Of a DNA stretch of 64,000 nt, positions 8,582 to 63,667 are shown one piece after another. Within the stretch, counting starts at the first letter, position 1. Each line of letters starts with the position of its first letter. Origin of the DNA: Patescibacteria group bacterium UBA4787 (lineage in GTDB: Bacteria; Patescibacteriota; Patescibacteriia; UBA2591; UBA4787). The position numbers were made by a program, and so were the translations under genes. A model generated the notes under the pieces. It was not told where the DNA came from and ran no database searches. It saw only the letters and a program-made list of their open reading frames with translations. The DNA lies in assembly GCA_002402995.1 (NCBI GenBank), contig DHGX01000004.1:85186-149185 (forward strand), read 5' to 3'.

Positions 8582-8610
8582 TCGTAAAATTACGCAATTT
8601 ATCCATTAAT

Positions 8611-8694: not shown

Positions 8695-8724
8695 CCACAA
8701 TATAAAAAAATAGAGAATATAGTC

Positions 8725-15886: not shown

Positions 15887-15887
15887 A

Positions 15888-16078
15888 CCAGGTAGTAGAG
15901 ATTCGATGCTTCTCGGGGCGCGATTTATATTAAGGAATGCGATAGAAGCAAAGAATAGTTATTTTATTAATGATGAGACCAAGTAGTGTAACGAAGCGAA
16001 AAGCTTGAAACTTAATACTCCGATGCCTTGGTCGGAGTCCAGACTCTTCGACATCGGGATTGAATTTTCACTACCTGG
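15888..16078 (+). mobile_element. family A MITE, copy A1 (long form, 191 bp)
   Basis: TIRs CCAGGTAGTAGAGATTCGATGCTTC ... ATTGAATTTTCACTACCTGG flanked by CATA at 15884-87 and 16079-82. It is ~90% identical to copy A2 at 44188-44378. Confidence 0.85.
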
Positions 16079-16511: not shown

Positions 16512-16536
16512 TGATTGCAAAAATTGATAAATTAGA

Positions 16537-16684
16537 GTATAATTGGCAGTGAGGATATCAAATAAAAGTCTGCTTTTGATTTGACTCCGACTCACCTCGC
16601 TGACCCGCTACGCCAACGCGTTAGCGTGGCGAGAGCTCCGGCGAAGTGTAGCGCCCCAATTTCACGGAGCGAAGCGAGTATAAT
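16537..16684 (-). repeat. family B repeat, copy B2 (long form with nested GC-rich palindromic insert)
   Basis: Reverse orientation. It contains the insert CGCTACGCCAACGCGTTAGCGTGGCGAGAGCTCCGGCGAAG and ends with GCGAGTATAAT about 40 nt upstream of the ATG at 16725. Confidence 0.8.
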
Positions 16685-16724
16685 TATTTTATCTAAAATC
16701 AACCTAATAGTCAAAATTATATCT

Positions 16725-20112: not shown

Positions 20113-20137
20113 ATTTTTTGTTTAGCATTTTTTATTA

Positions 20138-20160
20138 ATTAAAAAATCTGCGTTTAACCG
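20138..20160 (-). promoter_or_regulatory. stem-loop plus U-run in the rplJ leader (possible attenuator/terminator)
   Basis: TCTGCGTTTAACCGCAGA hairpin with T and A runs on either side, 26 nt upstream of the rplJ start. Confidence 0.3.
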
Positions 20161-20351
20161 CAGAAAAAATTAAAACCTCGATAGGCACAAATTAAGTTCT
20201 TTTCGAACACCTATTTTCTACGGTTAAGTAAAAATATTATACATAACTAATTTACCAACGTCAATAGTTTATCCACTCCGACGCTCTGGCTCGCCTCGAT
20301 TCGGCGAAGCGGGTCGGAGTCCCGATCGTCGGGGTTGACGTCGGGGCAGAA

Positions 20352-25430: not shown

Positions 25431-26132
25431 TTAAGCTTTCGCTCTTTTTTTAAGAGCAGTTTGAACAACGTCGGATAAATAATTAGTAATTAAGTTAATG
25501 GTCTTGGTAGAATCGTCATTCGCCGGGATGGGATAATCAACAAAATTAGGATTAGCGTTGGTATCTACTATACCGACAGTGGAAATCTTGGCTCGCTCCG
25601 CCTCCTTAAGGGTAGTTGATTCTTTTCTAATATCAATAATAAAAATGACCTGCGGCAACCGTTCCAGATTTCTTAAACCCCCGACTGTTTTTTGTAATTT
25701 TTGCAATAACCTCTCTTTTAGTAATCTTTCTTTCTTAGTGTATTTAGTGTCCCACTCGCCGGAATCTTTTTCTTTTTCCAGCCTCTTCATTTTGTTTATT
25801 GTATTAGAGATAGCCGTAAAATTAGTTAATGTGCCGCCTAACCATCTTTCAACAACGAAAGGCATGTTAGTAGCCATAGCAACCTTTTTAATGGCCTCGT
25901 ACGCGGCCGGTTTTGTACCAACGAACAAAACGTTACCGCCTTTGGCTATAATTTCAGACAAAAAATCTCCTGCCGCCTTAAGCTGTTCAACAGTTTTCTC
26001 TAAATTAATAAGATGAATAGTATTTTTCGTGCTATGGATAAAGGGTAGCATTTTGGGGTGTCTTTTGCTAACATGATGGCCTAAATGGGCTCCGGCTTTA
26101 AAAAGCTCTAAAACTGTGGGGACTTGAGTCAT
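25431..26132 (-). CDS. rpsB: 30S ribosomal protein S2
   Basis: 233 aa with a conserved S2 N-terminus (LFKAGAHLGHHVSKRHPKM) and the usual rpsB-tsf arrangement. Confidence 0.95.
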   Translation of the reverse strand: MTQVPTVLELFKAGAHLGHHVSKRHPKMLPFIHSTKNTIHLINLEKTVEQLKAAGDFLSEIIAKGGNVLFVGTKPAAYEAIKKVAMATNMPFVVERWLGGTLTNFTAISNTINKMKRLEKEKDSGEWDTKYTKKERLLKERLLQKLQKTVGGLRNLERLPQVIFIIDIRKESTTLKEAERAKISTVGIVDTNANPNFVDYPIPANDDSTKTINLITNYLSDVVQTALKKRAKA

Positions 26133-26198
26133 AATAAGAATTTTTATTGTATTTAATATTAAAATTAAGTGTATTTATTATATTCTATAATAATCCAC

Positions 26199-26588: not shown

Positions 26589-27689
26589 TTGTTTGATAAT
26601 AGCGGTTCTATTTATATTATGAATTTACCAAACTTAAAAAATCTTAGAGATAAATTAATTAATCTGGAGCGCGAGTTGCAAGCCCCGGGAATTTTGTCAT
26701 TCTCAGAAAAATTAACAGAAACATCACGCGAATATAATAGGACTAAAGAATTAGTAGATCTGTTAGAAAAGATAGAAAATATTAAACAAAAAATAGAGGA
26801 ATTAGAAATTTTTTCGAAAACCGAAGAAGGCGCTGAACTTTTAGAAATTGCGCAAACAGAAAAAAACGAACTTTTTAGAGAAAAAGAAAAAATAGAAAAT
26901 GAGCTGAAAGAATTTTTGTCCGAGAAAAGCATTATCGAATCAAAAAATGTCATTATGGAAATCCGCGCCGGCACAGGAGGAGACGAAGCTTCTTTGTTCG
27001 CTGCTAATCTTTTTAGAATGTATAGTCTTTTTGCTGATCATAATGGTTGGCGAACAGAAATCTTAAATGCCAGCCGAACAGACCTTAATGGTTTTAAAGA
27101 AGTTGTTTTTAGAATTGAAGGAAAAAATGCTTATAAATATTTAAAGTATGAGAGCGGAGTTCATCGCGTGCAGCGCGTTCCCGAGACAGAAAAGAACGGA
27201 CGCGTTCACACCTCTACGGCTACCGTAGCGGTTTTGCCGGAAGCAACGGACGTTGACATCAAGATCAAAAACGAAGATTTAAAAATCGAAACTTTTCGAT
27301 CAGGCGGACATGGCGGACAAAATGTACAAAAAGTGGAAACAGCTGTTAGAATCGTTCACCTGCCTACCGGTTTAGTGGTGAGCTGCCAAGACGAAAGATC
27401 TCAATTTAAAAACAAAGAAAAAGCTTTTAAAATATTACAATCCAGGCTTTTAGTCTTAATGGAAGAAAAAAAACATAAAGAACGCGCCGACGAGAGACGC
27501 TCGCAAATCGGTAGCGCCGAGCGTTGCGAAAAAACTAGAACTTATAATTTCTCGCAAGACAGAATTACCGATCATCGCTTCAACATCAGCTGGCACAATA
27601 TCAACGATTTTATGAACGGTAACATTAAAAATGCCATTGAAGAGTTACAAAAATCAGATGAAGATAAAAGAAGCGTTAATTTGGGCTAA
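26589..27689 (+). CDS. prfA: peptide chain release factor 1
   Basis: 366 aa with the GGQ motif (RSGGHGGQNVQKVETAVR) and an RF1-type domain. The start may instead be the Met at 26619. Confidence 0.9.
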   Translation: MFDNSGSIYIMNLPNLKNLRDKLINLERELQAPGILSFSEKLTETSREYNRTKELVDLLEKIENIKQKIEELEIFSKTEEGAELLEIAQTEKNELFREKEKIENELKEFLSEKSIIESKNVIMEIRAGTGGDEASLFAANLFRMYSLFADHNGWRTEILNASRTDLNGFKEVVFRIEGKNAYKYLKYESGVHRVQRVPETEKNGRVHTSTATVAVLPEATDVDIKIKNEDLKIETFRSGGHGGQNVQKVETAVRIVHLPTGLVVSCQDERSQFKNKEKAFKILQSRLLVLMEEKKHKERADERRSQIGSAERCEKTRTYNFSQDRITDHRFNISWHNINDFMNGNIKNAIEELQKSDEDKRSVNLG

Positions 27690-28536
27690 AAAAGAATTAA
27701 AACATAAAAAAATAGAATCTTGGATGTTAGAAGCCGAGATTATCTTGGCTTATATTGTAAAAGACACCAAAGAATATTTGTATGCACATCCAGAAGATGA
27801 ATTAAATAAAAAACAAGAAGCTGGGTTTAGAAAATTAATCCAAAAAAGATTAACTGGTTGGCCAACTCCCTATTTAATCAAACATAGGGAATTTTTTGGT
27901 TTAAATCTTTTTGTTAACCAAAAAGTTTTAATTCCTAGGCAAGCAACTGAATCAATTATTGAGTATATTTTAGAAAATTATAGATTAGACACAAATTCAA
28001 AAATTTTAGAAATAGGAACCGGTTCCGGTTGTATTATAGTTACCTTGGGAAAACTCTTCCCTGTCGCTAAAATTACAGCCGTAGATATCTCTAAATCAGC
28101 GCTAAAGATCGCTGAATTAAATGCTAAAAATAATGTGGTTAGAAATATTAAATTCAGACAAAGCAATTTATTTAACAAAATTAAAGGAAGATTTGATATA
28201 ATTATTGCTAATTTGCCGTATCTTTCGCCGGCCAAAAGCAAAACAATCAAATATGAACCTGTCGTGGCTTTAAACGGCGGCAAGCAAGGGCTGGAAATTA
28301 TAAAAAGATTTTTGTTCCAAGCTCCAAATTTTTTAACACCAAAAGGTAAGATAATTATTGAAATCTCGCCTACTCAAAAAAATGCTCTTATAAAATTTAT
28401 AAAAAAACAACTTACCGATTATCATTTTAATATCGAAATTAGAAAAGACTTATCCATAAAAGATAGATTGGTGATTATAACTGCTTCGCAGTTGAAATTG
28501 GGGCGCCCCACTTCGCCGGAGCTCTCGCCGCGCTAA
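27631..28536 (+). CDS. prmC: release factor glutamine methyltransferase PrmC (HemK)
   Basis: A SAM-binding motif (ILEIGTGSGCI) and an NPPY-like motif (NLPY) lie downstream of prfA. The last ~15 codons (LKLGRPTSPELSPR) are encoded by repeat B3, so the native stop is uncertain. Confidence 0.8.
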   Translation: MPLKSYKNQMKIKEALIWAKKELKHKKIESWMLEAEIILAYIVKDTKEYLYAHPEDELNKKQEAGFRKLIQKRLTGWPTPYLIKHREFFGLNLFVNQKVLIPRQATESIIEYILENYRLDTNSKILEIGTGSGCIIVTLGKLFPVAKITAVDISKSALKIAELNAKNNVVRNIKFRQSNLFNKIKGRFDIIIANLPYLSPAKSKTIKYEPVVALNGGKQGLEIIKRFLFQAPNFLTPKGKIIIEISPTQKNALIKFIKKQLTDYHFNIEIRKDLSIKDRLVIITASQLKLGRPTSPELSPR

Positions 28537-28619
28537 CGCGTTGGCGTAGCGGGTCAGCGAGGCGAGTCGGAATCAAATCAAAAGAAGACTTTTATTTGAC
28601 ATCCTCGCTACCAACCATA
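28476..28619 (+). repeat. family B repeat, copy B3 (long form with GC-rich insert)
   Basis: It overlaps the prmC 3' end. It is the only B copy not placed upstream of a gene start, lying between convergent genes. Confidence 0.8.
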
Positions 28620-28650
28620 AGTCGTAAATAATATACAGGAATAATGTCCT

Positions 28651-36178: not shown

Positions 36179-36184
36179 ACTATG

Positions 36185-36349
36185 TTGGGTAGTGAAAATT
36201 CAATCCCGACGTCGAAGGGTCGGGATTTCGACCAAGGCGTCGGAGTAGTAAGTTTCAAGTTTTCCACTTCGATCTACTATCTGGTTCTATTATTAATAAA
36301 ATAACTATTCTTTGCTTCTATCGCATTCCTTGATATAAATCGCATACCT
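36185..36349 (-). mobile_element. family A MITE, copy A3 (long form, reverse orientation, gene-proximal TIR partly deleted)
   Basis: TATG lies at 36181-84. The copy is ~85% identical to the reverse complement of A1/A2 and ends 3 nt before the ATG at 36353. Confidence 0.7.
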
Positions 36350-42494: not shown

Positions 42495-42526
42495 AGGCTT
42501 GATTTATATATTGAATTATACTCGCT

Positions 42527-42601
42527 TTGCTTGTGAAATTTGGACGTTCAGAGTCAAGTCAAAAGTAAAACTTTTGTTTGAACTTCTCGCTACCAACTAT
42601 A
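42527..42601 (+). repeat. family B repeat, copy B4 (short form)
   Basis: Its TATAAT box lies about 20 nt upstream of the start of the 41763-42494 gene. Confidence 0.8.
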
Positions 42602-42650
42602 CTGTATTTATATCATATTTTGATAGAAAAGTCAATATAATAAAATACCT

Positions 42651-44186
42651 TTATTGTTCTATATATTTTACGCTTATTTTAGCTTCAAAAATTTGCTTCA
42701 GTAGCTTGGGATCGGCTCTATCCTTGCTATCTTTCATCGCTTGACCAATTAAAAATTGCAAAACGTTGATTCTCCCGTTTTGATATGCTTTTACCATTTC
42801 AGCGTTTTTATCAATTACTTTTTGAACGATATTTTCTATTTCTGTAGTATTGTCAACTCTTTTAAAGTCTTCGGATTGTATTATTTTATCAACATCTGCT
42901 CCAGTTATAAACATTTCTTCCAAAAGCTTTTGAGCCATAGTGCCGGAAACCTTATTTTCATAAATTAAAATAATAAATTCGGCGAAATTTTCAGGAGTAA
43001 TTTTAAGATTTTCAAAATTTTCATGGTGCGTTTGAAAAAGATAAAACAATCGATTAATAATCCAAGACGACACCAGCTTTAATAGCTTTGATCGGTGTTT
43101 CGTCCAAATTTCTTGTTCGCTATCTTCTACGGTTTCTAAAGATATAAGCCATGCTTTGAGTTCAGAAACAACATGCTCCGTGAAATCGGCCATAATTTTT
43201 TGGCTGGTCAGAATCTTCGCCTCTTCTTTGGATAAATCATAAGAGCGCTCGAATCTTTCGCGACGAATACAGGGCAATTCAGGCAAAGAAGATCTTAAAT
43301 TATTAATATTGATGAAATTGTCCACCGTCGAATCAAAAAATGGAATATCCGGTTCCGGAAAATAACGATAATCCGTTATCCCCTCTTTAATCCTTTGAAC
43401 TATAATTTTCTCTTTGTTCTCGTCCCAACCGACCGTAATTTTTCCCTGACGCCTTACAATTTCTCCCCCGGCAATATATTCTTCGTATTGGCGATTAGCT
43501 TCAAAACCTAAAGCCCTTTCCACGGCCTTAAAGGAATTTAAATTTTTAATTTCTGTGATTGGTGTTTTAATCTCTCGCTCGTCTTTATCAAAACTAATAT
43601 TGACGTTGACGTCGCAACGCATTTGTCCTTTTTCCATATCGGCATCGGAAATATTCAAATATCGGGCAATCAACTGCAATTCTTGCAAAAATATCTTTGC
43701 CTCTTCGGGAGATTTTAGATCTGGCTCAGTAACAATTTCGACTAAAGGAATACCCGAACGATTAAAATCAATTAAAGTATTATCGCCCGAGTGCGATAAT
43801 TTAGCAGTATCTTCTTCAAGGTGAATCCTGTTTAATCTTATTTTTCTGCGCTCATTTGATAAATCAATGTCTAGATAACCGCCCGCAATAATCGGATGAT
43901 CATATTGACTGATTTGATAACCCTTCGGCAAATCTGGATAAAAATAATTTTTGCGGTCAAATTTAAATTTTTCGGCCACGCGACTATTTAAAGACAAGCC
44001 CAACGAAATCGCTTGTTCAAGAGCTAGACGATTTACTACTGGCAATGCCCCTGGCTGACCAGTACAAACCGGACAAATATTGCTATTAGGATGACTCAAA
44101 TCGAGTTTATTCTCACAAAAACAAAACATTTTTGTTTTTGTTTTAAGCTCTAAATGGATTTCTAGCCCTATAATAAATTTAAACAT
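42651..44186 (-). CDS. gatB: Asp-tRNA(Asn)/Glu-tRNA(Gln) amidotransferase subunit B
   Basis: 511 aa with the GatB N-terminus (IGLEIHLEL, CPVCTGQPGALP) and a C-terminal YqeY-like domain. Confidence 0.9.
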   Translation of the reverse strand: MFKFIIGLEIHLELKTKTKMFCFCENKLDLSHPNSNICPVCTGQPGALPVVNRLALEQAISLGLSLNSRVAEKFKFDRKNYFYPDLPKGYQISQYDHPIIAGGYLDIDLSNERRKIRLNRIHLEEDTAKLSHSGDNTLIDFNRSGIPLVEIVTEPDLKSPEEAKIFLQELQLIARYLNISDADMEKGQMRCDVNVNISFDKDEREIKTPITEIKNLNSFKAVERALGFEANRQYEEYIAGGEIVRRQGKITVGWDENKEKIIVQRIKEGITDYRYFPEPDIPFFDSTVDNFININNLRSSLPELPCIRRERFERSYDLSKEEAKILTSQKIMADFTEHVVSELKAWLISLETVEDSEQEIWTKHRSKLLKLVSSWIINRLFYLFQTHHENFENLKITPENFAEFIILIYENKVSGTMAQKLLEEMFITGADVDKIIQSEDFKRVDNTTEIENIVQKVIDKNAEMVKAYQNGRINVLQFLIGQAMKDSKDRADPKLLKQIFEAKISVKYIEQ

Positions 44187-44187
44187 A

Positions 44188-44378
44188 CCATGTAGTAGAG
44201 ATTCGATGCTTCTCGGGGTGCGATTTATATTAAGGAATGCGATAGAAGCAAAGAATAGTTATTTTATTAATAATAGAACCAGATAGTAGACCGAAGCGGA
44301 AAGCTTGAAACTTACTACTCCGACGCCTTGGTCGGAGTCCCGACCCTTCGACATCGGGATTGAATTTTCACTACCTGA
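44188..44378 (+). mobile_element. family A MITE, copy A2 (long form)
   Basis: TIRs with CATA at 44184-87 and 44379-82. The gatB start codon is the CAT of the left duplication. Confidence 0.85.
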
Positions 44379-44385
44379 CATATTT

Positions 44386-45765
44386 TTAACAAGAATGCTT
44401 ACTACTTAAAACTATGACGATGGTTTTAAGTAAAATTTTAAAATCCAACCAAATAGACCATTGGCGAACATAGAAAAGATCTAACTTAACCTCCTCTTCA
44501 AAGGATAAACTTGATCGACCTGAAACTTGAGATAATCCTGTCACACCAGGTTTAATGAATAATAATTCTTTTTGATTATAATCATATCGTGAGACTTCAT
44601 CGGGTTGATGTGGCCGAGGTCCGACCAAACTCATTTGTCCCTTTAAAACATTAAATAATTGCGGCAATTCATCGATACTATAACGTCTAATAAATTTGCC
44701 GATTTTTGTCACGCGTGGATCGTTCTTCATTTTGAATAAAGGACCATCTTTTCTCTCGTTTTGCGCCATTAGGTCTTTTTTAAGTTGTTCGGCGTTTTTT
44801 ACCATAGAACGAAATTTGTATAATCTGAAAGATTTTCCCCGTTGACCGACTCGCGTTAAACCGACAAAAATTGACCCAGATGAATCAATTTTAATAATAA
44901 GGCCTAATAAAATAAAAAATGGAGACAGAGCAATCAATCCGAAAAAAGAAAAAATAATATCTAAAATTCTTTTGACTACCCTTCCCCACCCATCTAAAGC
45001 CGTTCGTTTTACTTCGATATACGGCCTGCCCATCATAGTTTCTACGGCTAGATTACTGGAAAGCGCGCCGAAGAGATCGGCGGCATACTTAAAATTTATT
45101 TGGTGTTCCTTGCAAAAAGCAATAAGACGCAAAACATCCGATCGAGATATATTAGAATCGCCCTGAATAATCTCGTCGAAACTTGAAACGCGACTAGACC
45201 AATTATTAATCAGGTCATCTACGGAAGCGGCTTGGCCGATAATATTATATCCATGTCCGAGATTTTTACGACAAGAGTTGATTAATTCTTCCACCTCCTT
45301 TCCTTGTCCTAAAATCAAGACTGGCTCTAAGCCAATGCCTTGTTTAAAAGATATTAACTGGATTAGATGAATTAAAAATCGTCCGATACTCAAAAAAACA
45401 AAAGAAGCTATCCATCCCGCTAAAATAATAAACCGAGAAGTAAAATATTCTCTTTGAAAAAACAAAAATAGAACAATTAACATAGTGCCCATAGAACAGC
45501 CAATAAAAATTTGGCTAATTTCTTGCGTAAAATGCCGTCTGTTTTTTATGCTATATAAGCCCAATAAAACAAAAATTCCTATCCAAATTAAAGCAATTAA
45601 AACGATCTTAAAAACATAATCGTTATAAGGGATCTGTGTGAATATCGGTAAAACTTCTTTAAATAACTTAAAACGCAAAAAATAAATAGATATGCCAGCC
45701 AAAACAAGCATAATAAAATCTAATGGCAATAAAGCGGTTAAAAATATAAGTCGAGATTTGCGCAT
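44386..45765 (-). CDS. undecaprenyl-phosphate sugar phosphotransferase (bacterial sugar transferase, WbaP/PglC-like C-terminal domain)
   Basis: 459 aa with N-terminal transmembrane helices and the C-terminal motif KFRSM...DELPQLFNVLKGQMSLVGPRP. Confidence 0.85.
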   Translation of the reverse strand: MRKSRLIFLTALLPLDFIMLVLAGISIYFLRFKLFKEVLPIFTQIPYNDYVFKIVLIALIWIGIFVLLGLYSIKNRRHFTQEISQIFIGCSMGTMLIVLFLFFQREYFTSRFIILAGWIASFVFLSIGRFLIHLIQLISFKQGIGLEPVLILGQGKEVEELINSCRKNLGHGYNIIGQAASVDDLINNWSSRVSSFDEIIQGDSNISRSDVLRLIAFCKEHQINFKYAADLFGALSSNLAVETMMGRPYIEVKRTALDGWGRVVKRILDIIFSFFGLIALSPFFILLGLIIKIDSSGSIFVGLTRVGQRGKSFRLYKFRSMVKNAEQLKKDLMAQNERKDGPLFKMKNDPRVTKIGKFIRRYSIDELPQLFNVLKGQMSLVGPRPHQPDEVSRYDYNQKELLFIKPGVTGLSQVSGRSSLSFEEEVKLDLFYVRQWSIWLDFKILLKTIVIVLSSKHSC

Positions 45766-45787
45766 AAAAATAGAATATAAAACAAAT

Positions 45788-45932
45788 TATACTCGCTTTG
45801 CTCCTAAAGTTGGGGCGCCCCGCTTCGCCATAGCTCTCGCCACGCTAACGCGTTGGCGTAGCGGGTCAGCGAGGCGAGTCGGAGTCAAATCAAAAGTAAA
45901 ACTTTTGTTTGAGCTCCTCACTACCAATTATA
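45788..45932 (+). repeat. family B repeat, copy B5 (long form with GC-rich insert)
   Basis: Its TATAAT box lies about 22 nt upstream of the sugar transferase start. Confidence 0.8.
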
Positions 45933-45957
45933 CCCAATTCTGTATTTTAATTCAAAT

Positions 45958-45985: not shown

Positions 45986-45992
45986 TGCTTAA

Positions 45993-46415
45993 ACAGGCCT
46001 ATAAGCCGAATTCTGTGCTCCCGATTTCTCGAGACGGCAATCATTTATCTAGCCTTAATATCGCTATTAAGGTCAAACGACCTACCTACTTCGTTCGCAC
46101 GAAGTTAATTTGGTCTTTCACCCAGTAAGGATTTAGCCGTTTCACCTCAAACGTTTCCATTTGAGCTACCCCCGAAGGGGCCGAAGCGTCTTTCGTTGCT
46201 TCGCGTCTCTGTTCGCACCTCTACCCCTCACTTGGGCCGTGAAAAAAAGAATATAATCATATAACATAATTATTTCCTATTTCATAGACCAAGTGAGGGG
46301 CGACGGCCGTTAACCGCTACGCTTTGTATTCCGATTTCTCGGAATATGGTGTTCGGACTTTCCTCCCCTTATTTAAAAAATAAGGAGTAATTGCCCGGCC
46401 CATTTAAACTATATA
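45993..46415 (-). ncRNA. rnpB: RNase P RNA (bacterial type A)
   Basis: The minus strand carries GGGGAGGAAAGTCCGAACACC (the P4 5' strand GGAGGAAAGUCCGG consensus) and, near the 3' end, ACAGAATTCGGCTTA (the P4 3' strand ACAGAAnnCGGCUUA). A P3 hairpin and GC-rich helices lie between them. Confidence 0.8.
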
Positions 46416-54701: not shown

Positions 54702-54815
54702 TTATCCCTGTCGTTGTTTATGTTTGGGATTTTTACAAATAATATAAAGTACTCTGTTCCGTCGAACAGACTTGCAGAAGCGACAAATTTTTTTAACAGA
54801 AGCCCTAACTTTCAT
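54702..54815 (-). CDS. rpmJ: 50S ribosomal protein L36
   Basis: The hand translation [37 protein letters not shown] is 37 aa. It is absent from the ORF track because it falls below the size cutoff. Confidence 0.85.
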
Positions 54816-54975
54816 AATATACCGATAAAAACCATTAAATTAACAAAGAAAGTAAAATAATTATAATCGCTTCGCTCTTGAAATTTACTCGCTCAGGAAT
54901 CAGGTAAAAACCATTTTACCTATTCCCTCGCTCAAAAATTATACTCTAAAACAAAAAAAATGTCAATCAAAATAA

Positions 54976-55200
54976 CTAATATCGGAAAGTTATTCTACCC
55001 TTAGACAAATCATACGGACTCATTTCTATTTTAACTCGATCGCCCATGGCTATTCTAATCCGATTTAGTCTTAATCTTCCAGAAAGATAGGCCAAAATTT
55101 CTTGGCCATTATCTAATTTAACCTTAAAGGTCGTCGAAGGCAAAAGTTCTTCAATGGTTCCGTCTGATTCTAAAAATTCTTCTTTTTTGGCGTTAAACAT
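54976..55200 (-). CDS. infA: translation initiation factor IF-1
   Basis: S1-like OB fold. Two adjacent ATGs lie at 55198-55203, and repeat B6 abuts the start. Confidence 0.9.
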
Positions 55201-55285
55201 CATACTCGCTTTGCTTGTGAAATTGGGGCACTCGGAGTCAAATCAAAAGTAAAACTTTTGTTTGATCTCTTCGCTACCAATTATA
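55201..55285 (+). repeat. family B repeat, copy B6 (short form)
   Basis: It directly abuts the infA start codon. Confidence 0.8.
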
Positions 55286-55394
55286 GAAAAACTAACGTTT
55301 AATATTTTAAAACAATTATCATTCTTTGTCAATATTGCCAAAAAATTAATAAGGTCAAAACCGACTTTTAATTTCGGTTTTAAAAGTTTGGGCG

Positions 55395-56354
55395 CTAAAA
55401 ACCCACATATTCAATTTCTTCGTTCAACTCTATATTAAACTTGTCTTTGACTTTTTGTTTAATCAGACCGATTAATTTATAAGTGTCATTCGCCGTAGCA
55501 TGGTTGGCATTAATTATAAAATTCGCGTGTTTTTCGCTTATTTTTGCCCCGCCAATTCCTTGTTCCTTTAATCCTGTTTTTTCAATAAGCCAACCCGCCG
55601 GGATGGTGCCAATTTTTAAAAACCTCAAAAAATCGTCATGATATTCTGCCTCTATGGGCGCAACCATATCCGTGCTTAGGTTAATTAATTTCGCATTGCG
55701 AAATACGCAACCCGCGCTAGGTTCGAGCGGATTGTTCTTGCGCAATGCCAGATTCTTGTTCATCTCTTCGGCAATTGTCTTTTGATCTTGTTTCGCTAAT
55801 ATTATTTCCCCGCTTAAAATAATATAATTTTTATTTATCTTAAATAAACTGTATCGATAAGAAAATTCGCATTTGTCGGCGTCGAAAAAGAGTGTTTTAT
55901 TATTTTCAACATCAAAAACTTTAACACGCGGAGAATTATTCTCTATAGTTTTGCCAAAAGCTCCGGCGTTGCCGCATATTGCCCCGCCGATTGTTCCGGG
56001 AATGCCAGTCGCCCACTCCAGGCCGCTCAAAGAATTTTTAAAAGCAAAATCAACCAAAGAGCTTAAATCGACGCTTGCGTCAAATTTTAAAATTCCATTT
56101 TCGTATAAAATAGAATTTCCTTTAAATTTAATAACCAATCCCCTAAATCCTTGATCTGATATTAAAATGTTGCTGCCGTCGCCTAAAATAAAAAACGGTA
56201 TATTATTATCCCTCGCGTAAATCAAAGAAGCGCAGAGATCATCTGTGTTCCTAGGTTCATAAAAAAAATCGGCTGGGCCGCCTATTCTGAAGGTCGTATG
56301 GGGGCCCAACGCAACATTATTTTTTAAGTATTCTGCTTTAAACATCTTATTCAT
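55395..56354 (-). CDS. murB: UDP-N-acetylenolpyruvoylglucosamine reductase
   Basis: 319 aa with an FAD-binding N-terminus (HTTFRIGGPADFF, ILGDGSNIL) and the MurB C-terminal domain. Confidence 0.85.
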   Translation of the reverse strand: MNKMFKAEYLKNNVALGPHTTFRIGGPADFFYEPRNTDDLCASLIYARDNNIPFFILGDGSNILISDQGFRGLVIKFKGNSILYENGILKFDASVDLSSLVDFAFKNSLSGLEWATGIPGTIGGAICGNAGAFGKTIENNSPRVKVFDVENNKTLFFDADKCEFSYRYSLFKINKNYIILSGEIILAKQDQKTIAEEMNKNLALRKNNPLEPSAGCVFRNAKLINLSTDMVAPIEAEYHDDFLRFLKIGTIPAGWLIEKTGLKEQGIGGAKISEKHANFIINANHATANDTYKLIGLIKQKVKDKFNIELNEEIEYVGF

Positions 56355-56438
56355 TATACTCGCTTTGCGAGTGAAATTAGGGCACTCGGAGTCAAATCAA
56401 AAGAAGACTTTTGTTTGATCTCTTCGCTACTAATTATA
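56355..56438 (+). repeat. family B repeat, copy B7 (short form)
   Basis: It directly abuts the murB start codon (…GCGAGTATAATGAAT). Confidence 0.8.
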
Positions 56439-56558
56439 TCAGAAAATCTATGTTATTACTACACCATTAAAGGCATTCCGCGGCAAAAATGTAGAATCAC
56501 TTGGCTTAAAAAAGGAGAGGTGATATACTAGAATAAAGATAATCTAAACAAAAAAAAT

Positions 56559-57488: not shown

Positions 57489-57511
57489 TTGTGGGATAAA
57501 TATAAATTATG

Positions 57512-57652
57512 CCAGGTAGTGAAAATTCGATAGTGCTTTTTGCTTCGGTTCACTATTTGGTTTCATTATTAATAAAATAAATATTCTTTGCTTCCAGTTT
57601 ATTCTTTCATATAATCGCACTTTAAGAGAAGCATCGAATTTCTACTACCTGG
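57512..57652 (-). mobile_element. family A MITE, copy A4 (short form, reverse orientation)
   Basis: TATG lies at 57508-11 and 57653-56. The cysS ATG is inside the right-hand duplication. Confidence 0.85.
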
Positions 57653-57653
57653 T

Positions 57654-59042
57654 ATGTTGCAGTTTTTTAACGACTTATCCAAAAAAAAGGAGATTTTTAC
57701 GCCAATAAAAAAAAGAGGCGTTGGTTTGTATACTTGCGGACCAACGGTTTATAATTATGTTCATATCGGTAATTTAAGAACATTTCTTTTAAATGATATC
57801 TTGAGAAGGACATTGGAGTATAACGGTTATTCTGTAAAAAATATAATTAATATAACCGACGTCGGACACTTAACTTCTGACGCTGATACAGGCGAAGACA
57901 AAATGGATAAAATGTCCAAGGCGGAAGGACGCGCTCCGGAAGAAATCGCGCAATTTTTTACCGACGCCTTTTTGGCCGACATTAAAGATTTGAATATTAT
58001 CCATCCCAATGTGCTTTGTAAAGCCACGGAACATATTCCGCAGCAAATAAAATTAATTAAAAAACTGGAAAAGAACGGCTTCACCTACCAAACCTCTGAA
58101 GCCGTATATTTTGACACGGCTAAATTTCCCGAATACGGCAAAATGGCCGGTTTTAGCGAGAAAAAAACCCAGGAAGCCCAGGCCAGAGTTGAAGAAGATC
58201 CGGAAAAGAAACATCTGGCTGATTTTACCTTATGGTTTAAGCGCGTTGGCCGCCACGCCCATCATATTATGCACTGGGATAGCCCCTGGGGCGACGGCTG
58301 GCCGGGGTGGCACATTGAGTGCAGCGCCATGTCAATGTATTATTTAGGCAAAACCTTTGATATTCACGGTGGCGGCATTGATCTTCTGCCGGTTCATCAT
58401 ATTAATGAAATCGCCCAATCCGAAGCGGCCACAGGCCAGAAATTCGTTAACTACTGGGTCCATGGGGAATTTATTCTAATGGACAGTAAAAAGATGGCCA
58501 GATCAGAGGGCGGATTTATTATGCTGCAGAATCTTATTGAAAAAGGCTTTAATCCCCTTGCCTTTCGCTATCTCTGCCTTAACACCCATTATCGCACGCA
58601 ATTAAACTTCTCTTTTCAGGCCTTGGAAGCGGCCCAGAATGCTTTGAATAAATTGTATCAAGCTATTAACGACTTCCCTAAACCGCGCGGCCGCGCTCCT
58701 GAATTTGAAGAACGCTTTTTAACGGCCATAAACGATGATTTAAATATGCCATCAGCTTTAGCCGTGGTTTGGGATTTACTTAAAACAAAAAATATTAAAC
58801 CCAGCGCCAAACTAAACACTTTATTCAAGTTTGATAAAGTTTTGGGACTTAAATTTGAAGAAACCTATAACAATTCCCAGGACACGCCGGAAGAAATAAA
58901 ACTTTTAGCCCAAGACAGAGAAGAGGCCAGGCAGGAAAAAAACTGGAAGAGAGCCGATGAAATCAGAAAAAAAATCCAAGAAGCCGGCTATCTGGTTGAA
59001 GACACGCCAACCGGACCTGATATAAAAAAAATAATATTGTAG
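57654..59042 (+). CDS. cysS: cysteinyl-tRNA synthetase
   Basis: 462 aa with HIGN (HIGH-like) and KMSKS-region motifs. The N-terminus aligns with canonical CysS. Confidence 0.9.
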   Translation: MLQFFNDLSKKKEIFTPIKKRGVGLYTCGPTVYNYVHIGNLRTFLLNDILRRTLEYNGYSVKNIINITDVGHLTSDADTGEDKMDKMSKAEGRAPEEIAQFFTDAFLADIKDLNIIHPNVLCKATEHIPQQIKLIKKLEKNGFTYQTSEAVYFDTAKFPEYGKMAGFSEKKTQEAQARVEEDPEKKHLADFTLWFKRVGRHAHHIMHWDSPWGDGWPGWHIECSAMSMYYLGKTFDIHGGGIDLLPVHHINEIAQSEAATGQKFVNYWVHGEFILMDSKKMARSEGGFIMLQNLIEKGFNPLAFRYLCLNTHYRTQLNFSFQALEAAQNALNKLYQAINDFPKPRGRAPEFEERFLTAINDDLNMPSALAVVWDLLKTKNIKPSAKLNTLFKFDKVLGLKFEETYNNSQDTPEEIKLLAQDREEARQEKNWKRADEIRKKIQEAGYLVEDTPTGPDIKKIIL

Positions 59043-59085: not shown

Positions 59086-59114
59086 TATACATATAACGTA
59101 TCGGCATATCTAAT

Positions 59115-59233
59115 GTTTCGCCGACCTTCTTATTATTTATCAAATGGAGGCGAAATTTGGGTGAAAGAAAAAGCGCAACTTTTGAAAATTATTAACGCAC
59201 TCTTTCTTGAACCTCATACACGCTGTTAAGTGA
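59115..59233 (+). repeat. family C repeat, copy C1
   Basis: About 85% identical to 60729-60849 in the same orientation. The minus strand encodes the 25-codon mini-ORF MRFKKECVNNFQKLRFFFHPNFASI. Confidence 0.7.
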
Positions 59234-59332: not shown

Positions 59333-59737
59333 CTACTCAACTTCTTGACCACCTTTAACTATATAACTAACTAATTTAAAAATGATTAGGAAGTATATAG
59401 CCTGTAGTCCATAGAAAAAAATAACATAAGTTACGGCTCCGTAAACAAAGAAAATATTTTCCGAAACTGCATATTTACTCTCACACTCTGCTTTTTCAGC
59501 TTCCCACTTTTCGACACTTGCATCATTATAGTCACGAGCTAGAAAATCGTCATCTGCATAGTTTTCACAGTTAAACAGAGGGGTAAAAGAGTTCTCATAA
59601 GCCGTCATCGTCAATTGATATGGCGCAATAGCAACTACAAGGAAAAACAAGACTACCAAAACTCTGTGCCACCAATATTTTTTCAACTTATTTTGTGTTT
59701 TTGTAAACGGAAATAGCCATTTTTTTATTTTTTTCAT
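59333..59737 (-). CDS. hypothetical small membrane protein (2 TM)
   Basis: 134 aa with two hydrophobic helices. Confidence 0.45.
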   Translation of the reverse strand: MKKIKKWLFPFTKTQNKLKKYWWHRVLVVLFFLVVAIAPYQLTMTAYENSFTPLFNCENYADDDFLARDYNDASVEKWEAEKAECESKYAVSENIFFVYGAVTYVIFFYGLQAIYFLIIFKLVSYIVKGGQEVE

Positions 59738-59761: not shown

Positions 59762-60154
59762 TTATCTCACTACCACGTCAAAGCTATAATCTTTTGTCCA
59801 TTCAAAGCCAGGAAAATCAAACAACTGTTCTTGTAAGTCTTTTTTTATCATTTCCTTAATATCTTCTGCTCTGTCTTGTGGTAAAATATTCTTGGGATAT
59901 ACATAAACTACAATGCTTTTTGCAAGCACAGATCCGTATGCGTTAAAATCAAGAAACAAGACAGAATCCTTTATTTGACGACGATAAAAATAATCATTGA
60001 TAAATCCCTCAAGCTCTAATTCAGTTTTTCTAGTAATTTCAGTCGTTTGATTTTCTGATTGTTTAACTGGTTGTGTGTCGTTTTTAACAAGTGTCGAACA
60101 ACCTGTTAAAACTAAAACAACAAGCAATAGTGTTGGAATTAGTAGTTTTTTCAT
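59762..60154 (-). CDS. hypothetical lipoprotein
   Basis: 130 aa with a signal peptide and lipobox (VLTGCST). Confidence 0.5.
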   Translation of the reverse strand: MKKLLIPTLLLVVLVLTGCSTLVKNDTQPVKQSENQTTEITRKTELELEGFINDYFYRRQIKDSVLFLDFNAYGSVLAKSIVVYVYPKNILPQDRAEDIKEMIKKDLQEQLFDFPGFEWTKDYSFDVVVR

Positions 60155-60177: not shown

Positions 60178-60675
60178 TTATTTTTTAAATTCTTCCACTT
60201 TCCTTTTTAGAATGTCATTTCTAACTTTATTTACAGCTCTTAAATAAGAAATATCATTTTCTGTATAGTTGTCTCCGTAATCAGATAGATAAAAACTATA
60301 TAACGCTTTCAGTGTTAAAGCATCGTAGATATCATAACTAAGGATATAATTTTTTCCATTAATATTCGTTGAAAAGGAGCTTGAATATAAACAAGTATTA
60401 AGGGTGGGGCTATAAAATATCTCTTCAAGAACCTCTTCCCCTAAATTTCCATTAGATTCCTTGATGATTTGTTGGATTTTATCAAGCTGGTCAAAACATG
60501 CCTTTTTCTTTGTAAACAAATCTTCCGGTTGCTTTTCTGTTGCCGAGGCATCTTGGTTAATTTCTTGATAGTTGTTTTGAGCGTCGTTTTTGGAGGATTG
60601 ATATTTATCAAAGATAATATATGCCCCCAATACTACAATAATTGCTACTAAAATTGGTGCGATAAATTTTTTCAT
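60178..60675 (-). CDS. hypothetical secreted/membrane-anchored protein
   Basis: 165 aa with an N-terminal hydrophobic helix. Confidence 0.5.
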   Translation of the reverse strand: MKKFIAPILVAIIVVLGAYIIFDKYQSSKNDAQNNYQEINQDASATEKQPEDLFTKKKACFDQLDKIQQIIKESNGNLGEEVLEEIFYSPTLNTCLYSSSFSTNINGKNYILSYDIYDALTLKALYSFYLSDYGDNYTENDISYLRAVNKVRNDILKRKVEEFKK

Positions 60676-60728
60676 AAAGATGTATAGTAATTTTTTATTA
60701 TTTCACTTAACGTTCAAGTATATGAGAA

Positions 60729-60849
60729 GTTTCGCCGACTTCCTTATTATTTTATCATAGAGGAGACGAAATTTGGGTGAAAGAAAAAGTGCAACCTTTG
60801 AAAATTATTTATGCGCTTTTTCTTGAACCGCATATTCGTTGTTAGACGA
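60729..60849 (+). repeat. family C repeat, copy C2
   Basis: It lies upstream (minus-strand sense) of the three-gene cassette. The minus strand encodes the 27-codon mini-ORF MRFKKKRINNFQRLHFFFHPNFVSSMIK. Confidence 0.7.
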
Positions 60850-61459: not shown

Positions 61460-61533
61460 TGGCGGGGGCGGCAGGAATCGGACCCGCATCCTCGGTTTTG
61501 GAGACCGATATTCTACCACTGAACTACACCCCC
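61460..61533 (-). tRNA. tRNA-Trp (anticodon CCA)
   Basis: Hand-folded cloverleaf with acceptor GGGGGTG/CGCCCCC, anticodon arm TCGGT-CTCCAAA-ACCGA, T arm GCGGG-TCCGATT-CCTGC and an encoded CCA. Confidence 0.85.
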
Positions 61534-61547
61534 GCGGCTCTGCGAAA

Positions 61548-61703
61548 CTACTTTGTTTCTTTGTGTAAAGTGTGCTTTTTGCACCATTTGCAGTGTTTCT
61601 TTAATTGCAATCTTTCTTTAAGAGTTTTCTTATTCTTTTTAGAATAATAATTAATATGGCGGCACTCACTGCACTCGAATTTAATTAAATTTTCTTGTGA
61701 CAT
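61548..61703 (-). CDS. rpmG: 50S ribosomal protein L33
   Basis: The hand translation MSQENLIKFECSECRHINYYSKKNKKTLKERLQLKKHCKWCKKHTLHKETK* has the C4 zinc ribbon. It falls below the ORF-track size cutoff. Confidence 0.85.
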   Translation of the reverse strand: MSQENLIKFECSECRHINYYSKKNKKTLKERLQLKKHCKWCKKHTLHKETK

Positions 61704-61754
61704 ATTTTTTGGTTAATAAATATTGATTTAATATTTTCAACAATTTTGATAGTA

Positions 61755-61826
61755 AGCCAGCGGTCGGATTTGGACCGACGACCTACTGTTTACAAAACAG
61801 TTGCTCTACCGCTGAGCTACGCTGGC
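61755..61826 (-). tRNA. tRNA-Thr (anticodon TGT)
   Basis: Acceptor GCCAGCG/CGCTGGC, anticodon arm ACTGT-TTTGTAA-ACAGT, T arm GTCGG-TCCAAAT-CCGAC. Confidence 0.85.
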
Positions 61827-61868
61827 AAAATTTTCCAAGAACTTAAATATTGGCGTGTTGATTTTAAA

Positions 61869-61951
61869 TGGGCGGGGTAGGATTTGCACCTACGGAGCCC
61901 GAAGGCGTCAGATTTACAGTCTGATCCGTTTGACTACTCCGGCACCCGCCC
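61869..61951 (-). tRNA. tRNA-Tyr (anticodon GTA), class II with long variable arm
   Basis: Acceptor GGGCGGG/CCCGCCC, anticodon loop CTGTAAA, a long variable arm and T arm GTAGG-TGCAAAT-CCTAC. Confidence 0.8.
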
Positions 61952-61979
61952 ACATAGTTTGCCCGCCTGCCAAAGCCAG

Positions 61980-62052
61980 AGCCCACCGTCGGATTTGAAC
62001 CGACGACCTACTCCTTACCATGGAGTTGCTCTACCAGCTGAGCTAGATGGGC
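61980..62052 (-). tRNA. tRNA-Thr (anticodon GGT)
   Basis: Acceptor GCCCATC/GGTGGGC (one G-U pair), anticodon arm ACTCC-ATGGTAA-GGAGT, T arm GTCGG-TTCAAAT-CCGAC. Confidence 0.85.
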
Positions 62053-62093: not shown

Positions 62094-62121
62094 ATTATAC
62101 CTAATTAAAATAAAAAATCAA
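62094..62121 (-). promoter_or_regulatory. promoter of the tRNA-Thr/Tyr/Thr-rpmG-tRNA-Trp operon
   Basis: TTGATT -16 nt- TATAAT on the minus strand, about 35 nt upstream of the tRNA-Thr(GGT) 5' end. Confidence 0.55.
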
Positions 62122-62122
62122 G

Positions 62123-62264
62123 CCAGGTAGTAGAAATTCGATGCTTCTTAAAAAGTGCGCTTATATGAAGAAATGCGGCAAGAGCAAAAAATATTTATTT
62201 ATTAATTACTAGAACCAGTCGGTTAAAGAGAAGCAAAAAGCACTATCGAATTTTCACTACCTGG
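62123..62264 (+). mobile_element. family A MITE, copy A5 (short form)
   Basis: TIRs flanked by CAAG at 62119-22 and 62265-68. It lies immediately upstream of the tRNA operon promoter. Confidence 0.85.
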
Positions 62265-62279
62265 CAAGCCTCCTAAATT

Positions 62280-62510
62280 TTAATTACTGTTCGATGGGCG
62301 CTGACGACGATTTTTAAACCGCAATTTTAATGAATTTATATTACGTTTAAGATAATTTAAAATTAATTGTCTTTTTATCCAATAACGCTTCTCTTGCGTA
62401 AGCTGCTTTAAATCAAGAGAAGCTGCCAGCGACAACTTGGCAGATAATAATATAATAATTCTTGCCAATAAAGCGAGAATAAAAACAACTAAAATTATAT
62501 TTATTATCAT
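62280..62510 (-). CDS. hypothetical small membrane protein sandwiched between two MITE copies
   Basis: 76 aa with an N-terminal hydrophobic helix and a basic tail. Its start codon is the CAT of the A6 target duplication. Confidence 0.3.
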   Translation of the reverse strand: MIINIILVVFILALLARIIILLSAKLSLAASLDLKQLTQEKRYWIKRQLILNYLKRNINSLKLRFKNRRQRPSNSN

Positions 62511-62511
62511 A

Positions 62512-62649
62512 CCAGGTAGTAGAAATTCGGTGCTTCTTAAAGTGCGATTATTAAGAAACGCGCTGGAAGCAAAGAATTAGTTATTTTATTAATGATGGGA
62601 CCAAGCAATGGAACGAAGCAAAAAGCACTATCGAATTTTCACTACCTGG
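62512..62649 (+). mobile_element. family A MITE, copy A6 (short form)
   Basis: TIRs with CATA at 62508-11 and 62650-53. Confidence 0.85.
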
Positions 62650-62788
62650 CATAATATAGATTTAATTAACCTTACAAATTCATTTGGCATATATTATAAA
62701 ATTATTCCTCAAAATCATTTATTGTCAAGCAAGCGAGTGAAATAAAAATTTTATTTTCATTTCCGAGCGAGCGCAGACAACACAGGGT

Positions 62789-63667
62789 TTAATACTCTTT
62801 ATTGTTTTGCACAGTTTTTAATCCCCACCAAAACAGGCTTTTTGCGTCCTGAAATCTTGCCTCGTCGGTCGGTGAGCCCAACAAAACAACCATAATATCG
62901 TTATTATTAGATTTATCATTAATTTCACCGACAAAACAATAGCCCGCTTCATCCAAAGAGCCGGTTTTCGCGCCCTTAAAACTTAAAAAACTATTTAATA
63001 ATTTATTAGTGCTTTTCAAGCGCTCTACTCTTTTATTTCCTTCGGGGCCGGCAATATTAATGTTATCTTCGGATTTTACTAAAATATCATGCAATTCTTT
63101 ATTCTTTTGCACGGTTGAAAATATCTTTATCAAATCTTTCGCGGTTGAATGATTGGCCGGATCCAAGCCGGTAACATCAAAAAAATGCGTATTCTTTAAA
63201 TCCAATTCATTGCATTTCTCGTTCATTTTCGTTGTCGCTGTTTTTAAATCCCCAAAAACAGCGCGCGCCATCGCTTTGGTGGCGTTGTTGGCTGATTTGA
63301 CTAAAGAAGCTTTAAGAAGGTCTTTTAACATAACCCTGTCTCCCTTGTGAATATTAATTTTTGACTCTTCGGCGTCGTCTTCTTCCTTTATTTCCACCCA
63401 AGAATTCATATCTGGTTGCTTCTCAACAACCACCAAGGCCGTCATTAGTTTAGTTAGGCTCGCGATAGATAATATTTGATTCGGATTTTTTTCGGAGAGA
63501 ATTGCGTTTGTTCCAATATTATAAACAATAGCGCTTTTGGCCTCTATTTTAACGCCTAAACTTTGATTAATGGACACCGAACGATTAACAACTTCGGGGT
63601 AAAAAAAAGACGGCTGAGCAATAACAGTCTGTCCGATAATAAAACTGATAATAAAACTGATGATCAT
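62789..63667 (-). CDS. D-alanyl-D-alanine carboxypeptidase (serine-type, S11/PBP5 family)
   Basis: 292 aa with an N-terminal signal and the SxxK (SIASLTK), SxN (SANN) and KTG motifs in the canonical order. Confidence 0.8.
   Translation of the reverse strand: MIISFIISFIIGQTVIAQPSFFYPEVVNRSVSINQSLGVKIEAKSAIVYNIGTNAILSEKNPNQILSIASLTKLMTALVVVEKQPDMNSWVEIKEEDDAEESKINIHKGDRVMLKDLLKASLVKSANNATKAMARAVFGDLKTATTKMNEKCNELDLKNTHFFDVTGLDPANHSTAKDLIKIFSTVQKNKELHDILVKSEDNINIAGPEGNKRVERLKSTNKLLNSFLSFKGAKTGSLDEAGYCFVGEINDKSNNNDIMVVLLGSPTDEARFQDAKSLFWWGLKTVQNNKEY

Follow-up and report, generated by a model that had tools for sequence, protein, structure and literature searches.

What is the short repeat that ends in a TATAAT box just ahead of gene starts in the genome of an uncultured groundwater bacterium of the Patescibacteria (candidate phyla radiation, CPR), and does it regulate these genes or move among them? 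The stretch analysed here, referred to as the window, is 64 kb long and comes from an organism of about 35% GC, and a preliminary description of it had listed seven copies of the repeat, here called family B and numbered B1 to B7, which were read either as a mobile -10 promoter module or as a conserved operator. Our overall reading, to which we would give a probability of roughly 0.7, is that family B is a non-autonomous, structure-dependent mobile element that targets hexamers resembling the -10 box.

Copy limits were taken from an nhmmer profile built from the seven copies and from a covariance model (R1). The profile recovered 7/7 copies with E-values of about 1e-25 to 1e-30, and all seven were found at or within a few bases of the positions first given for them, the largest correction being to B4, which is present but whose start had been placed about 12 nt too far in. 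Two units had been overlooked, namely a complete, diverged eighth copy (W54858) and a right-end fragment (Table 1), and a ninth copy lies just past the right end of the window (L143:16705-16792; L numbers denote loci on the contigs compared). Full copies therefore number eight in the 64 kb, a density of about 8-9 per 70 kb, and about 35 when related contigs are included (covariance model R1), while a search of the window for the motif GCGAGTATAAT with no more than one mismatch gives 11 occurrences, where shuffled sequence gives 1.46 +/- 1.12. Three populations were sampled: the window strain, represented by a contig of 360 kb, a second population (Ga0265296, ERZ27249422) that is about 90% identical in nucleotide sequence, and a metagenome-assembled genome (MAG) from Hainich H41 groundwater, at about 80-85%. 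The TATAAT at the gene-side end is real, as had been described, but a TATAAT-like hexamer also stands at the 5' end of every copy, and this had gone unnoticed.

Read towards the gene, the unit is TATAAT-TGGTAGCGAGG-(P2)-CCGA-(optional P3)-GCGCCCCAATTTCAC-(P4)-G-TATAAT, in which P2 is a long AT hairpin (AG.TCAAACAAAAG-loop-CTTTTGATTTGA.CT), P4 is a mini-hairpin of the form xxGC-GAA-GCxx (GCGAAGC) that gives the right end the form CCAATTTCAC-P4-GTATAAT, and P1 is a helix in which AATT of the left hexamer, together with GG, pairs with CCAATT. The oligonucleotide d(GCGAAGC) is a DNA mini-hairpin of unusual stability. Elements are about 85 nt long, or about 115, 150 or 205 nt where an extra internal hairpin is present, and this hairpin, P3, is modular, being absent, 30 nt, 60 nt (in the window) or about 115 nt (in an H41 relative). 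The 60-nt GC-rich insert reported in B2, B3 and B5 is indeed found at the same internal position in all three, and within the window its ACGCGT palindrome occurs in these copies only. That it represents a smaller nested element is possible, in that adding a 32-nt palindrome to the 30-nt form gives the 60-nt one, but a free-standing palindrome was not found. Terminal inverted repeats are absent, the ends reading TATAATTGGTAGCGAG... and ...AAGCGAGTATAAT; P1, 6 bp long and subterminal at the right end, provides the lone inverted pairing, and the GCGAG/GAGCG motif is present three times per unit as direct repeats.

The fold was assessed with 35 distinct copies from the window and the related contigs, in an alignment that was itself fitted to the model, a caveat that applies to all of the pairing statistics. 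Across these copies 87.6% of the cells in the proposed helices are paired, and two-sided changes are seen in 21 of the 29 pairs, compared with 8.2 +/- 1.9 in column shuffles (none of 500 shuffles reaching the observed count) and at most 11 in controls slid by 1-3 columns. P2 is 96.4% paired; P1 is 94.9% paired and covaries, with independent variants AATTAG/CTAATT (B7), AATTT/AAATT (W54858), AATTCC/GGAATT (L133) and AATCG/CGATT (L143), and support for P4 comes mainly from the inner GC/GC pairs of GC-GAA-GC. Covariation across subfamilies conserves base pairing and not sequence. As single-stranded DNA the unit folds with z-scores of -4.5 to -5.6, equal for both strands. A further helix suggested by RNAalifold (P1b, GCG/CGC) was dropped, being weak (76% paired) with one-sided changes only. 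Two observations on hairpin form may be recorded here. A palindrome of 14 nt with a PvuII site in it, CCGCCAGCTGGCGG, stands at hairpin tips, in P2 of one copy and in P4 of others, as if the tips had been extended by a shared palindromic unit; it occurs once in the window (8563-8576, in the fragment beside B1) and elsewhere at L075:5193-5291, L113:1-84 and L118:4228-4328. One copy (L124:4418-4505) has neither P4 nor a right hexamer and runs into a terminator-like hairpin followed by a T-run (AGGAGAATATATTTATTCTCCTATTTTATTTT).

That the element moves is seen from the comparison of loci with and without it, since orthologous sites in sister populations lack it. In all seven comparisons of filled and empty sites, each empty site has one TATAAT-like hexamer and each filled site has two (Table 1). 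Empty hexamers that depart from the consensus (TATGAT, TATTAT and TATCAT) have filled counterparts in which one or both hexamers are a perfect TATAAT, and no deviation is common to both flanks, so the element must carry a hexamer: it brings at least one TATAAT of its own. At infA, B4 and L130 the hexamers to left and right are unlike each other and unlike that of the empty site. A test for target-site duplication by means of correlated hexamer variants found none, all deviations being one-sided, and a simple target-site duplication is unlikely. The element can also insert beside its own end, as is seen in head-to-tail arrays in which adjoining units have one hexamer in common (L116, L127, L131 and L132; junction form GCGAG-TATAAT-TGGTAGCG). 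We regard it as very likely that family B is a mobile element targeted to TATAAT-like hexamers.

Table 1. Copies of family B, filled and empty sites, and other mapped features. Positions are those of the window; a slash within a site sequence marks a division.
Feature	Position	Strand	Details
B1, full short copy	8607-8696	-	left TATAAT 8689-8694, right TATAAT 8609-8614; upstream of IF-2B-family gene, real start ATG 8523
Right-end fragment, in tandem with B1	8553-8606	-	..AATTTTACGAG-TGATCCGCCAGCTGGCGGAGAG-TATAAT; TATAAT 8553-8558, 29 nt ahead of ATG 8523; final hairpin lengthened by CCGCCAGCTGGCGG palindrome, same extended hairpin in L113/L118
B2, long copy	16536-16686	+	60-nt P3 hairpin 16591-16650; right TATAAT 16679-16684, 40 nt ahead of ATG 16725
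B3, long copy	28472-28621	-	P3 28507-28566; between two convergent genes, exception to upstream-of-gene position; left hexamer decayed to TATGGT
B4, short copy	42513-42603	-	between gatB and 243-aa gene; flanks TATAGT, TATAAT
B5, long copy	45784-45934	-	P3 45819-45878; between RNase P RNA and sugar-transferase gene
Eighth copy (W54858), diverged	54858-54945	-	upstream of rpmJ; P1 AATTT/AAATT, P2 AGGTAAAA/TTTTACCT
B6	55197-55287	-	infA leader; left TATAAT; right TATGAT contains infA start
B7	56351-56440	-	at TGnTATAAT box 7 nt ahead of murB ATG (56338)
Unoccupied TATAAT target	26177-26182	-	upstream of gene 25431-26132
murB site, empty			L131 CTGATATAAT/AAATAAGATG (TATAAT); H41 CTGCTACAAT/GAATAAGATG (TACAAT)
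murB site, filled			window CTGATATAAT(B7)...GAGTATAAT/GAATAAGATG
infA site			empty in H41, ..GTTATC-TATGAT-GTTTAAT; filled in window and second population, TATAAT(B6)TATGAT
rpmJ site			empty in H41, TTGACA-N16-TATAAT-TATTTTACTTT; filled in window, eighth copy within that hexamer
Site at unoccupied target	26177-26182		empty in window, single TATAAT; filled in H41 relative L117, TATAAT(206 nt)TTTAAT, 17 nt past TTGACA
B5 site			empty in L138, single TATAAT 8 nt ahead of ATG; filled in window
B4 site			empty in L138 and H41 (L140), TATTAT; filled in window, TATAGT(B4)TATAAT
Site of L130 copy			empty in window-strain L142, TATCAT; filled in L130, TATAAT(..)TATAAA
Family A copy	15884-16087
Family A copy	36181-36344
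Family A copy	44184-44387
Family A copy	57497-57670
Family A copy	62105-62266
Family A copy	62508-62664
L10 leader	20132-20241
RNase P RNA (class A)	45986-46406
tRNAs Trp, Thr, Tyr, Thr	61460-62052

To judge from their sequences, the targets are often putative sigma-70 promoters. The left TATAAT of the eighth copy (54938-54943) is the -10 box of a perfect TTGACA(54961-54966)-N17-TATAAT of the rpmJ-rpsM operon, the left hexamer of the L117 copy likewise completes a perfect TTGACA-N17-TATAAT, and the murB target has a TG extension. In 8/32 copies the left hexamer is accompanied by a TG extension or by a -35 box that matches at 5/6 positions or better, as against 5/96 coding TATAAT hexamers in the genes of the window, and neither a -35 box nor a TG extension belongs to the right hexamer. 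After insertion the left hexamer stays joined to the old -35 or TG context and the right hexamer stands at the old distance from the gene. The infA target is a -10 look-alike that overlaps the start codon, downstream of a conserved TTGACA-N17-TAAAAT (55332-55304), and since it is not itself a -10 box, it would be the sequence that is recognised and not promoter activity. The window contains 139 TATAAT hexamers, of which 102 are coding, and all of the elements are intergenic. The earlier notion of a mobile -10 module is thus right in that a TATAAT is placed beside the gene, but no promoter is imported to a promoter-less gene: an existing hexamer is reused and regenerated.

The position upstream of genes that had been noted is also borne out, 6/7 copies (7/8 with the new one) having a same-strand start 0-86 nt past the right TATAAT, and it extends to the wider set, in which a gene on the same strand follows closely at about 24 of 31 independent loci, where one half would be expected by chance. 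We attribute this bias to an oriented target combined with the loss of disruptive insertions. Target boxes lie from a few to about 45 nt ahead of start codons, and it is plausible that insertions are tolerated because the hexamer is regenerated at its original distance from the start codon; a -10 box rebuilt on the gene side would allow insertions into promoters to persist, which would explain both position and orientation. The unit is not an intrinsic terminator, as a U-tract follows none of its hairpins. Shine-Dalgarno motifs are nearly absent from the A/T-rich upstream regions of 64 genes, ribosomal-protein genes included, and several genes of the window have a TATAAT 4-13 nt ahead of the ATG, a combination that suggests leaderless or very short-leader mRNAs.

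Two old copies stand apart by their conservation. B6 (88/91 positions) and the eighth copy (88/88) are almost or completely identical between the window and L131, while third codon positions of neighbouring genes are 77-88% identical (pooled, about 83%) and other spacers 36-86%; both copies are common to the window strain and the second population and absent from H41. At the synonymous rate about 31 differences would be expected in the two copies and three are seen, which is not neutral decay, and since P2 of the eighth copy is unique, that copy is unlikely to have been converted by paralogues. By contrast, B4 arose after the strains split and is about 9% off the consensus. Whether some copies, such as these two, have been exapted by the host as parts of promoters or 5' leaders is, on this comparative evidence, an evenly balanced question in our view; initiation at the left promoter would place the 5' end a few nt before P2 and so give the transcripts a 5'-proximal stabilising hairpin.

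Such conservation, the covarying helices and the presence of copies in the infA and rpmJ-rpsM leaders, where transcripts from the left promoter are predicted to begin a few nt before P2, are also what one would expect of a host cis-regulatory structured RNA (a 5' leader, mRNA stabiliser or processing signal) that had spread by duplication or recombination, its mobility being a by-product. We find this improbable, however, because the downstream genes are unrelated (IF-2B family, one unknown, sugar transferase, murB, infA, rpmJ), strains at about 90% identity differ by gains and losses of copies, some copies run antisense into gene 3' ends (B3; L143:16705-16792), the P1 bases on the left lie upstream of the expected start of the left promoter and so would be missing from that RNA, Rfam gives no meaningful match up to an E of 10, and B4 has decayed by about 9% from the consensus though young. 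The operator proposed in the preliminary description, a site or array for a transcription factor bound at the ACGCGT palindrome, could draw on the threefold GCGAG/GAGCG motif, on the palindromic insert of three window copies and on a suitable location beside -10 boxes. It is not supported, given that pairing rather than sequence is conserved, the stem sequences varying while pairing is kept, and that the insert behaves as an optional, variable third hairpin, missing in 5/8 window copies and replaced in sister genomes by an unrelated hairpin of 30 or 115 nt; with insertion polymorphism ahead of unrelated genes in addition, we consider an operator extremely improbable.

Among explanations that do involve mobility, a classical MITE (miniature inverted-repeat transposable element), moved by cut-and-paste or copy-and-paste by a DDE transposase with a 6-7 bp stagger at TATAAT(T), would account for the direct TATAAT repeats that flank every copy as a duplication of the single hexamer seen at each empty site; in about two thirds of the copies the right hexamer has a T after it, giving TATAATT on both sides, and families A and C of the same genomes (described below) do have terminal inverted repeats and target duplications. 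Family B itself has no such termini, its GCGAG motifs being direct, and a duplication would give identical flanks, whereas at infA an empty TATGAT faces a left TATAAT, at B4 an empty TATTAT faces TATAGT and TATAAT, and hexamer variants are never common to the two sides of a copy; we therefore hold this to be quite unlikely. A folded site for a tyrosine or serine recombinase, comparable to integron attC or to Xer-mobilised modules and with TATAAT as the crossover core, is very improbable. Like att, the hexamer stands singly in empty sites and as a pair in filled ones, the paired ends around a variable terminal structure resemble attC, and the infA hexamers look hybrid, with a crossover in or before TAT, but there are no inverted binding arms beside the hexamer, the GCGAG repeats again being direct, no RYYYAAC/GTTRRRY boxes are present, and the neighbours are syntenic housekeeping genes and not cassettes, with no integrase in the annotated loci.

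The mobile element that we prefer could move as a folded single strand of DNA, handled in trans by a strand-specific HUH enzyme similar to the TnpA of IS200/IS605 or to RAYT (REP-associated tyrosine transposase, REP being the repetitive extragenic palindrome), with P1 presenting the hexamer for cleavage. This step, proposed by analogy, is tentative, and we put it forward as a possibility only; it was suggested by features that point away from a DDE transposase: the lack of inverted termini, the fixed orientation at an asymmetric target and the covarying structure, together with pairing that reaches into the hexamer, insertion beside the element's own end and apparently seamless empty sites. 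Several points weigh against this reading as a whole. No transposase or recombinase was found by Pfam in 20 open reading frames (ORFs), which included ORFs of the window and ten ORFs beside copies, or in precomputed Pfam annotation of about 120 kb of loci (nine loci, L135-L143, covering a fraction of each genome). The layout of IS608 is not closely matched, P1 linking the left flank to sequence near the right end and the lengths of the linkers agreeing only loosely (PMC3597680). Mismatched pairs make no call on the folding strand (G-T versus A-C, 34 to 26 overall and 26 to 19 in clean helices). The infA case suggests that the right hexamer is the original one, yet B4 and L130 are ambiguous in this respect; at some sites the direction of the polymorphism may be insertion or precise loss, and a tandem pair beside a corA-like start (L131:1020-1219) is matched in the window by an unclean site, TATCTTTAT (56510-56535). 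Finally, an element that was purely selfish would not usually keep two orthologous copies so strongly conserved. The sequence TATCTTTAT could in itself be an excision footprint or plain divergence.

Family B was found only in one narrow lineage, represented by the three sampled populations, to which it appears to be confined. The lineage is an isolated one, the next homologue of GatB in a protein search being just 56% identical. Among 241 million metagenome records a specific pattern matched sources of the second population and of H41 only, and a scan of genome contigs with a loose pattern gave 115 matches, mostly due to chance, with real ones only in the Patescibacteria MAG H41-bin211_1. Two scans of viral contigs and a BLAST search of plasmids returned no copies. 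Rfam 15 gave no match at the gathering score in the window and nothing meaningful at E <=10 over 54800-56500; a known self-cleaving ribozyme was also rejected, as there are no core motifs and no Rfam match. A limited literature search, weak as evidence of absence, found no report of a TATAAT-targeting element or of MITEs in CPR bacteria.

Other families of small elements occur beside family B. Family A is about 160-200 nt long with inverted termini CATACCAGGTAGT...ACTACCTGGTATG, and in the window the end of three copies coincides with a gene's ATG (15020-15886, 42651-44186 and 57654-59042). In L117 it stands at the rpmE start codon (CTTATG(...)GGTATG/AAAAAAG), where the window is empty, so that (T)ATG is duplicated and the start codon regenerated, and in L138 it is missing between gatB and the sugar-transferase gene. 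Family C, of which the window has no copy, has inverted termini CCCC(A/G)TTAGAGATT...AATCTCTAA..GGGG (L131:2773-2886, L136:4250-4470) and sits within the rpmJ promoter, in its -35 box TTGAC(A), flanked on each side by TTGAC; H41 and the second population have it there and the window strain does not (empty 54961-54966), which implies precise loss or repeated insertion. Some family B copies also contain it, at TTCAC (L116, L129). Family D resembles family B and has the form TTTATTGTC-AAGCGAG-(AT hairpin)-CCGAGCGAGC-GACAA-CACAGGGTTTAAT-ACTC, with a P1 of its own (TTGTC/GACAA) and TTTATT(G) repeated on both sides. It is found at 62718-62805 of the window and at L116:6151-6321 (two in tandem), with further copies in L122, L123, L124, L126 and L130; between families D and B the flank and its internal complement change together. 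These families might form a guild of tiny elements, each regenerating the signal in which it lands: C in TTGAC(A), B in TATAAT, A at ATG and D at TTTATT. The most far-reaching picture, of a self-guided single-stranded DNA transposon specific for -10 boxes, in which P1 pairs with the attacked hexamer and the promoter is rebuilt, accompanied by such a guild and with domesticated copies at infA and rpmJ-rpsM, is, taken as a whole, an unlikely one.

Copies of family B also disturb gene prediction, and the spurious in-frame extensions pointed out earlier are real. The prmC ORF (27631-28536) is extended by B3, into which it reads for 65 nt, and two others, 16581-19091 (TTG) and 16071-16595 (GTG 16595), begin inside B2. 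The IF-2B-family ORF 7589-8581 has its real start at ATG 8523 (311 aa), and the murB ORF 55395-56354 starts at ATG 56338 (316 aa) according to the gene calls of L142 and L143. Elsewhere in the window two stretches of about 130 nt (59094-59228 and 60708-60844) are 76-87% identical and may be a duplicated regulatory or intergenic segment; close by are three small genes for which Pfam gives no match (59333-59737, 59762-60154 and 60178-60675).

An element that lands on a -10 box and restores it would explain how a CPR genome of about 1 Mb with scant intergenic DNA can hold mobile DNA at high density. Co-occurring strains provide natural pairs of promoters with and without the element, and the covarying DNA or RNA fold offers a target-pairing helix that can be tested; if it is true that the mobiliser is an HUH protein, family B would show in simple form how base pairing can choose a target. 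There are practical effects too: ORFs are falsely extended and start codons falsely called (IF-2B gene, murB, prmC and the 16581 ORF), and assemblies of these genomes are broken.

Dispersed repeats that carry promoter boxes are already known. Promoter-bearing MITEs such as the Correia repeat enclosed elements (CREE, or nemis), MITEAba12, BrickBuilt and QMITE1 have sigma-70 boxes and effects on nearby genes (PMC10969869, PMC3184786). Like these Correia-type elements, family B is small, abundant, non-coding, strain-variable and mostly placed just upstream of genes, with sigma-70-like boxes near an end and hairpins that would form in transcripts (PMC10969869, PMC3184786); the consensus -10 found at both of its ends is a putative promoter element. 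It has the MITE traits of being small, non-coding, multi-copy and polymorphic for presence or absence, but its ends lack the terminal inverted repeats that define a classical MITE. Correia elements have 26-bp terminal inverted repeats and a TA duplication and bring promoters to new places, whereas family B, with no inverted termini and no sequence similarity found, hits an existing hexamer in one orientation and rebuilds it. The bcr1 repeats of the Bacillus cereus group come close in other ways, being about 100-150 nt long and strain-variable with short AT-rich direct flanking repeats and a two-stem-loop fold with compensatory changes, and they too are possibly a special class of mobile sequence (PMC3184786). 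They differ in sequence and host phylum and in a 5-bp flanking repeat without a link to promoters; family D, with its TTTATT flank, is nearer to the bcr1 arrangement than family B is.

The non-autonomous elements derived from IS200/IS605 (PATEs) have no inverted termini, insert with strand and orientation specificity beside a short specific sequence and have subterminal hairpins, and in their single-strand 'peel and paste' movement the cleavage or target site is paired with a short stretch inside the element and excision can be seamless (PMC3597680). Family B has the same traits in that all insertions are at TATAAT-like hexamers, in one orientation and without inverted termini. It departs from PATEs in having no TnpA that we found, in its two dissimilar hairpins (P2 near the left end, P4 near the right), in a target that is a hexamer and not a tetra- or pentanucleotide, and in that P1 pairs the left hexamer with a sequence beside the right-end hairpin and not with a guide 5' of its own hairpin. 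In IS200/IS605 a guide tetranucleotide lies 5' of each hairpin foot, with linkers of 15-16 nt on the left versus 8 nt (PMC3597680); on the top strand of family B the linkers are about 9-14 versus 0-9 nt, with CCAATT 4 nt 5' of P4. REP sequences are described as GC-rich palindromes of 20-40 bp with a conserved GTAG or CGTC tetranucleotide (PMC3733652). As high-copy extragenic hairpins thought to be moved in trans by an HUH enzyme, they invite comparison with family B, whose main subfamily has GTAG immediately 5' of a hairpin, but they usually lie at gene 3' ends, and membership in the REP/RAYT system was rejected, as the family B unit is a multi-hairpin one of at least 85 nt bracketed by TATAAT, with GCAG, GTAA, GTGA or CTAG in place of GTAG in its other subfamilies. 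Integron attC was set aside likewise, the paired ends being AATTGG/CCAATT with no AAC/GTT triplets and the neighbours syntenic housekeeping genes. Family B is unusual among these systems in its targeting and regeneration of the -10 hexamer, in the pairing of P1 with that hexamer and in its CPR setting, and it is by landing on the -10 box and restoring it that this variant differs from the promoter-box repeats described before.

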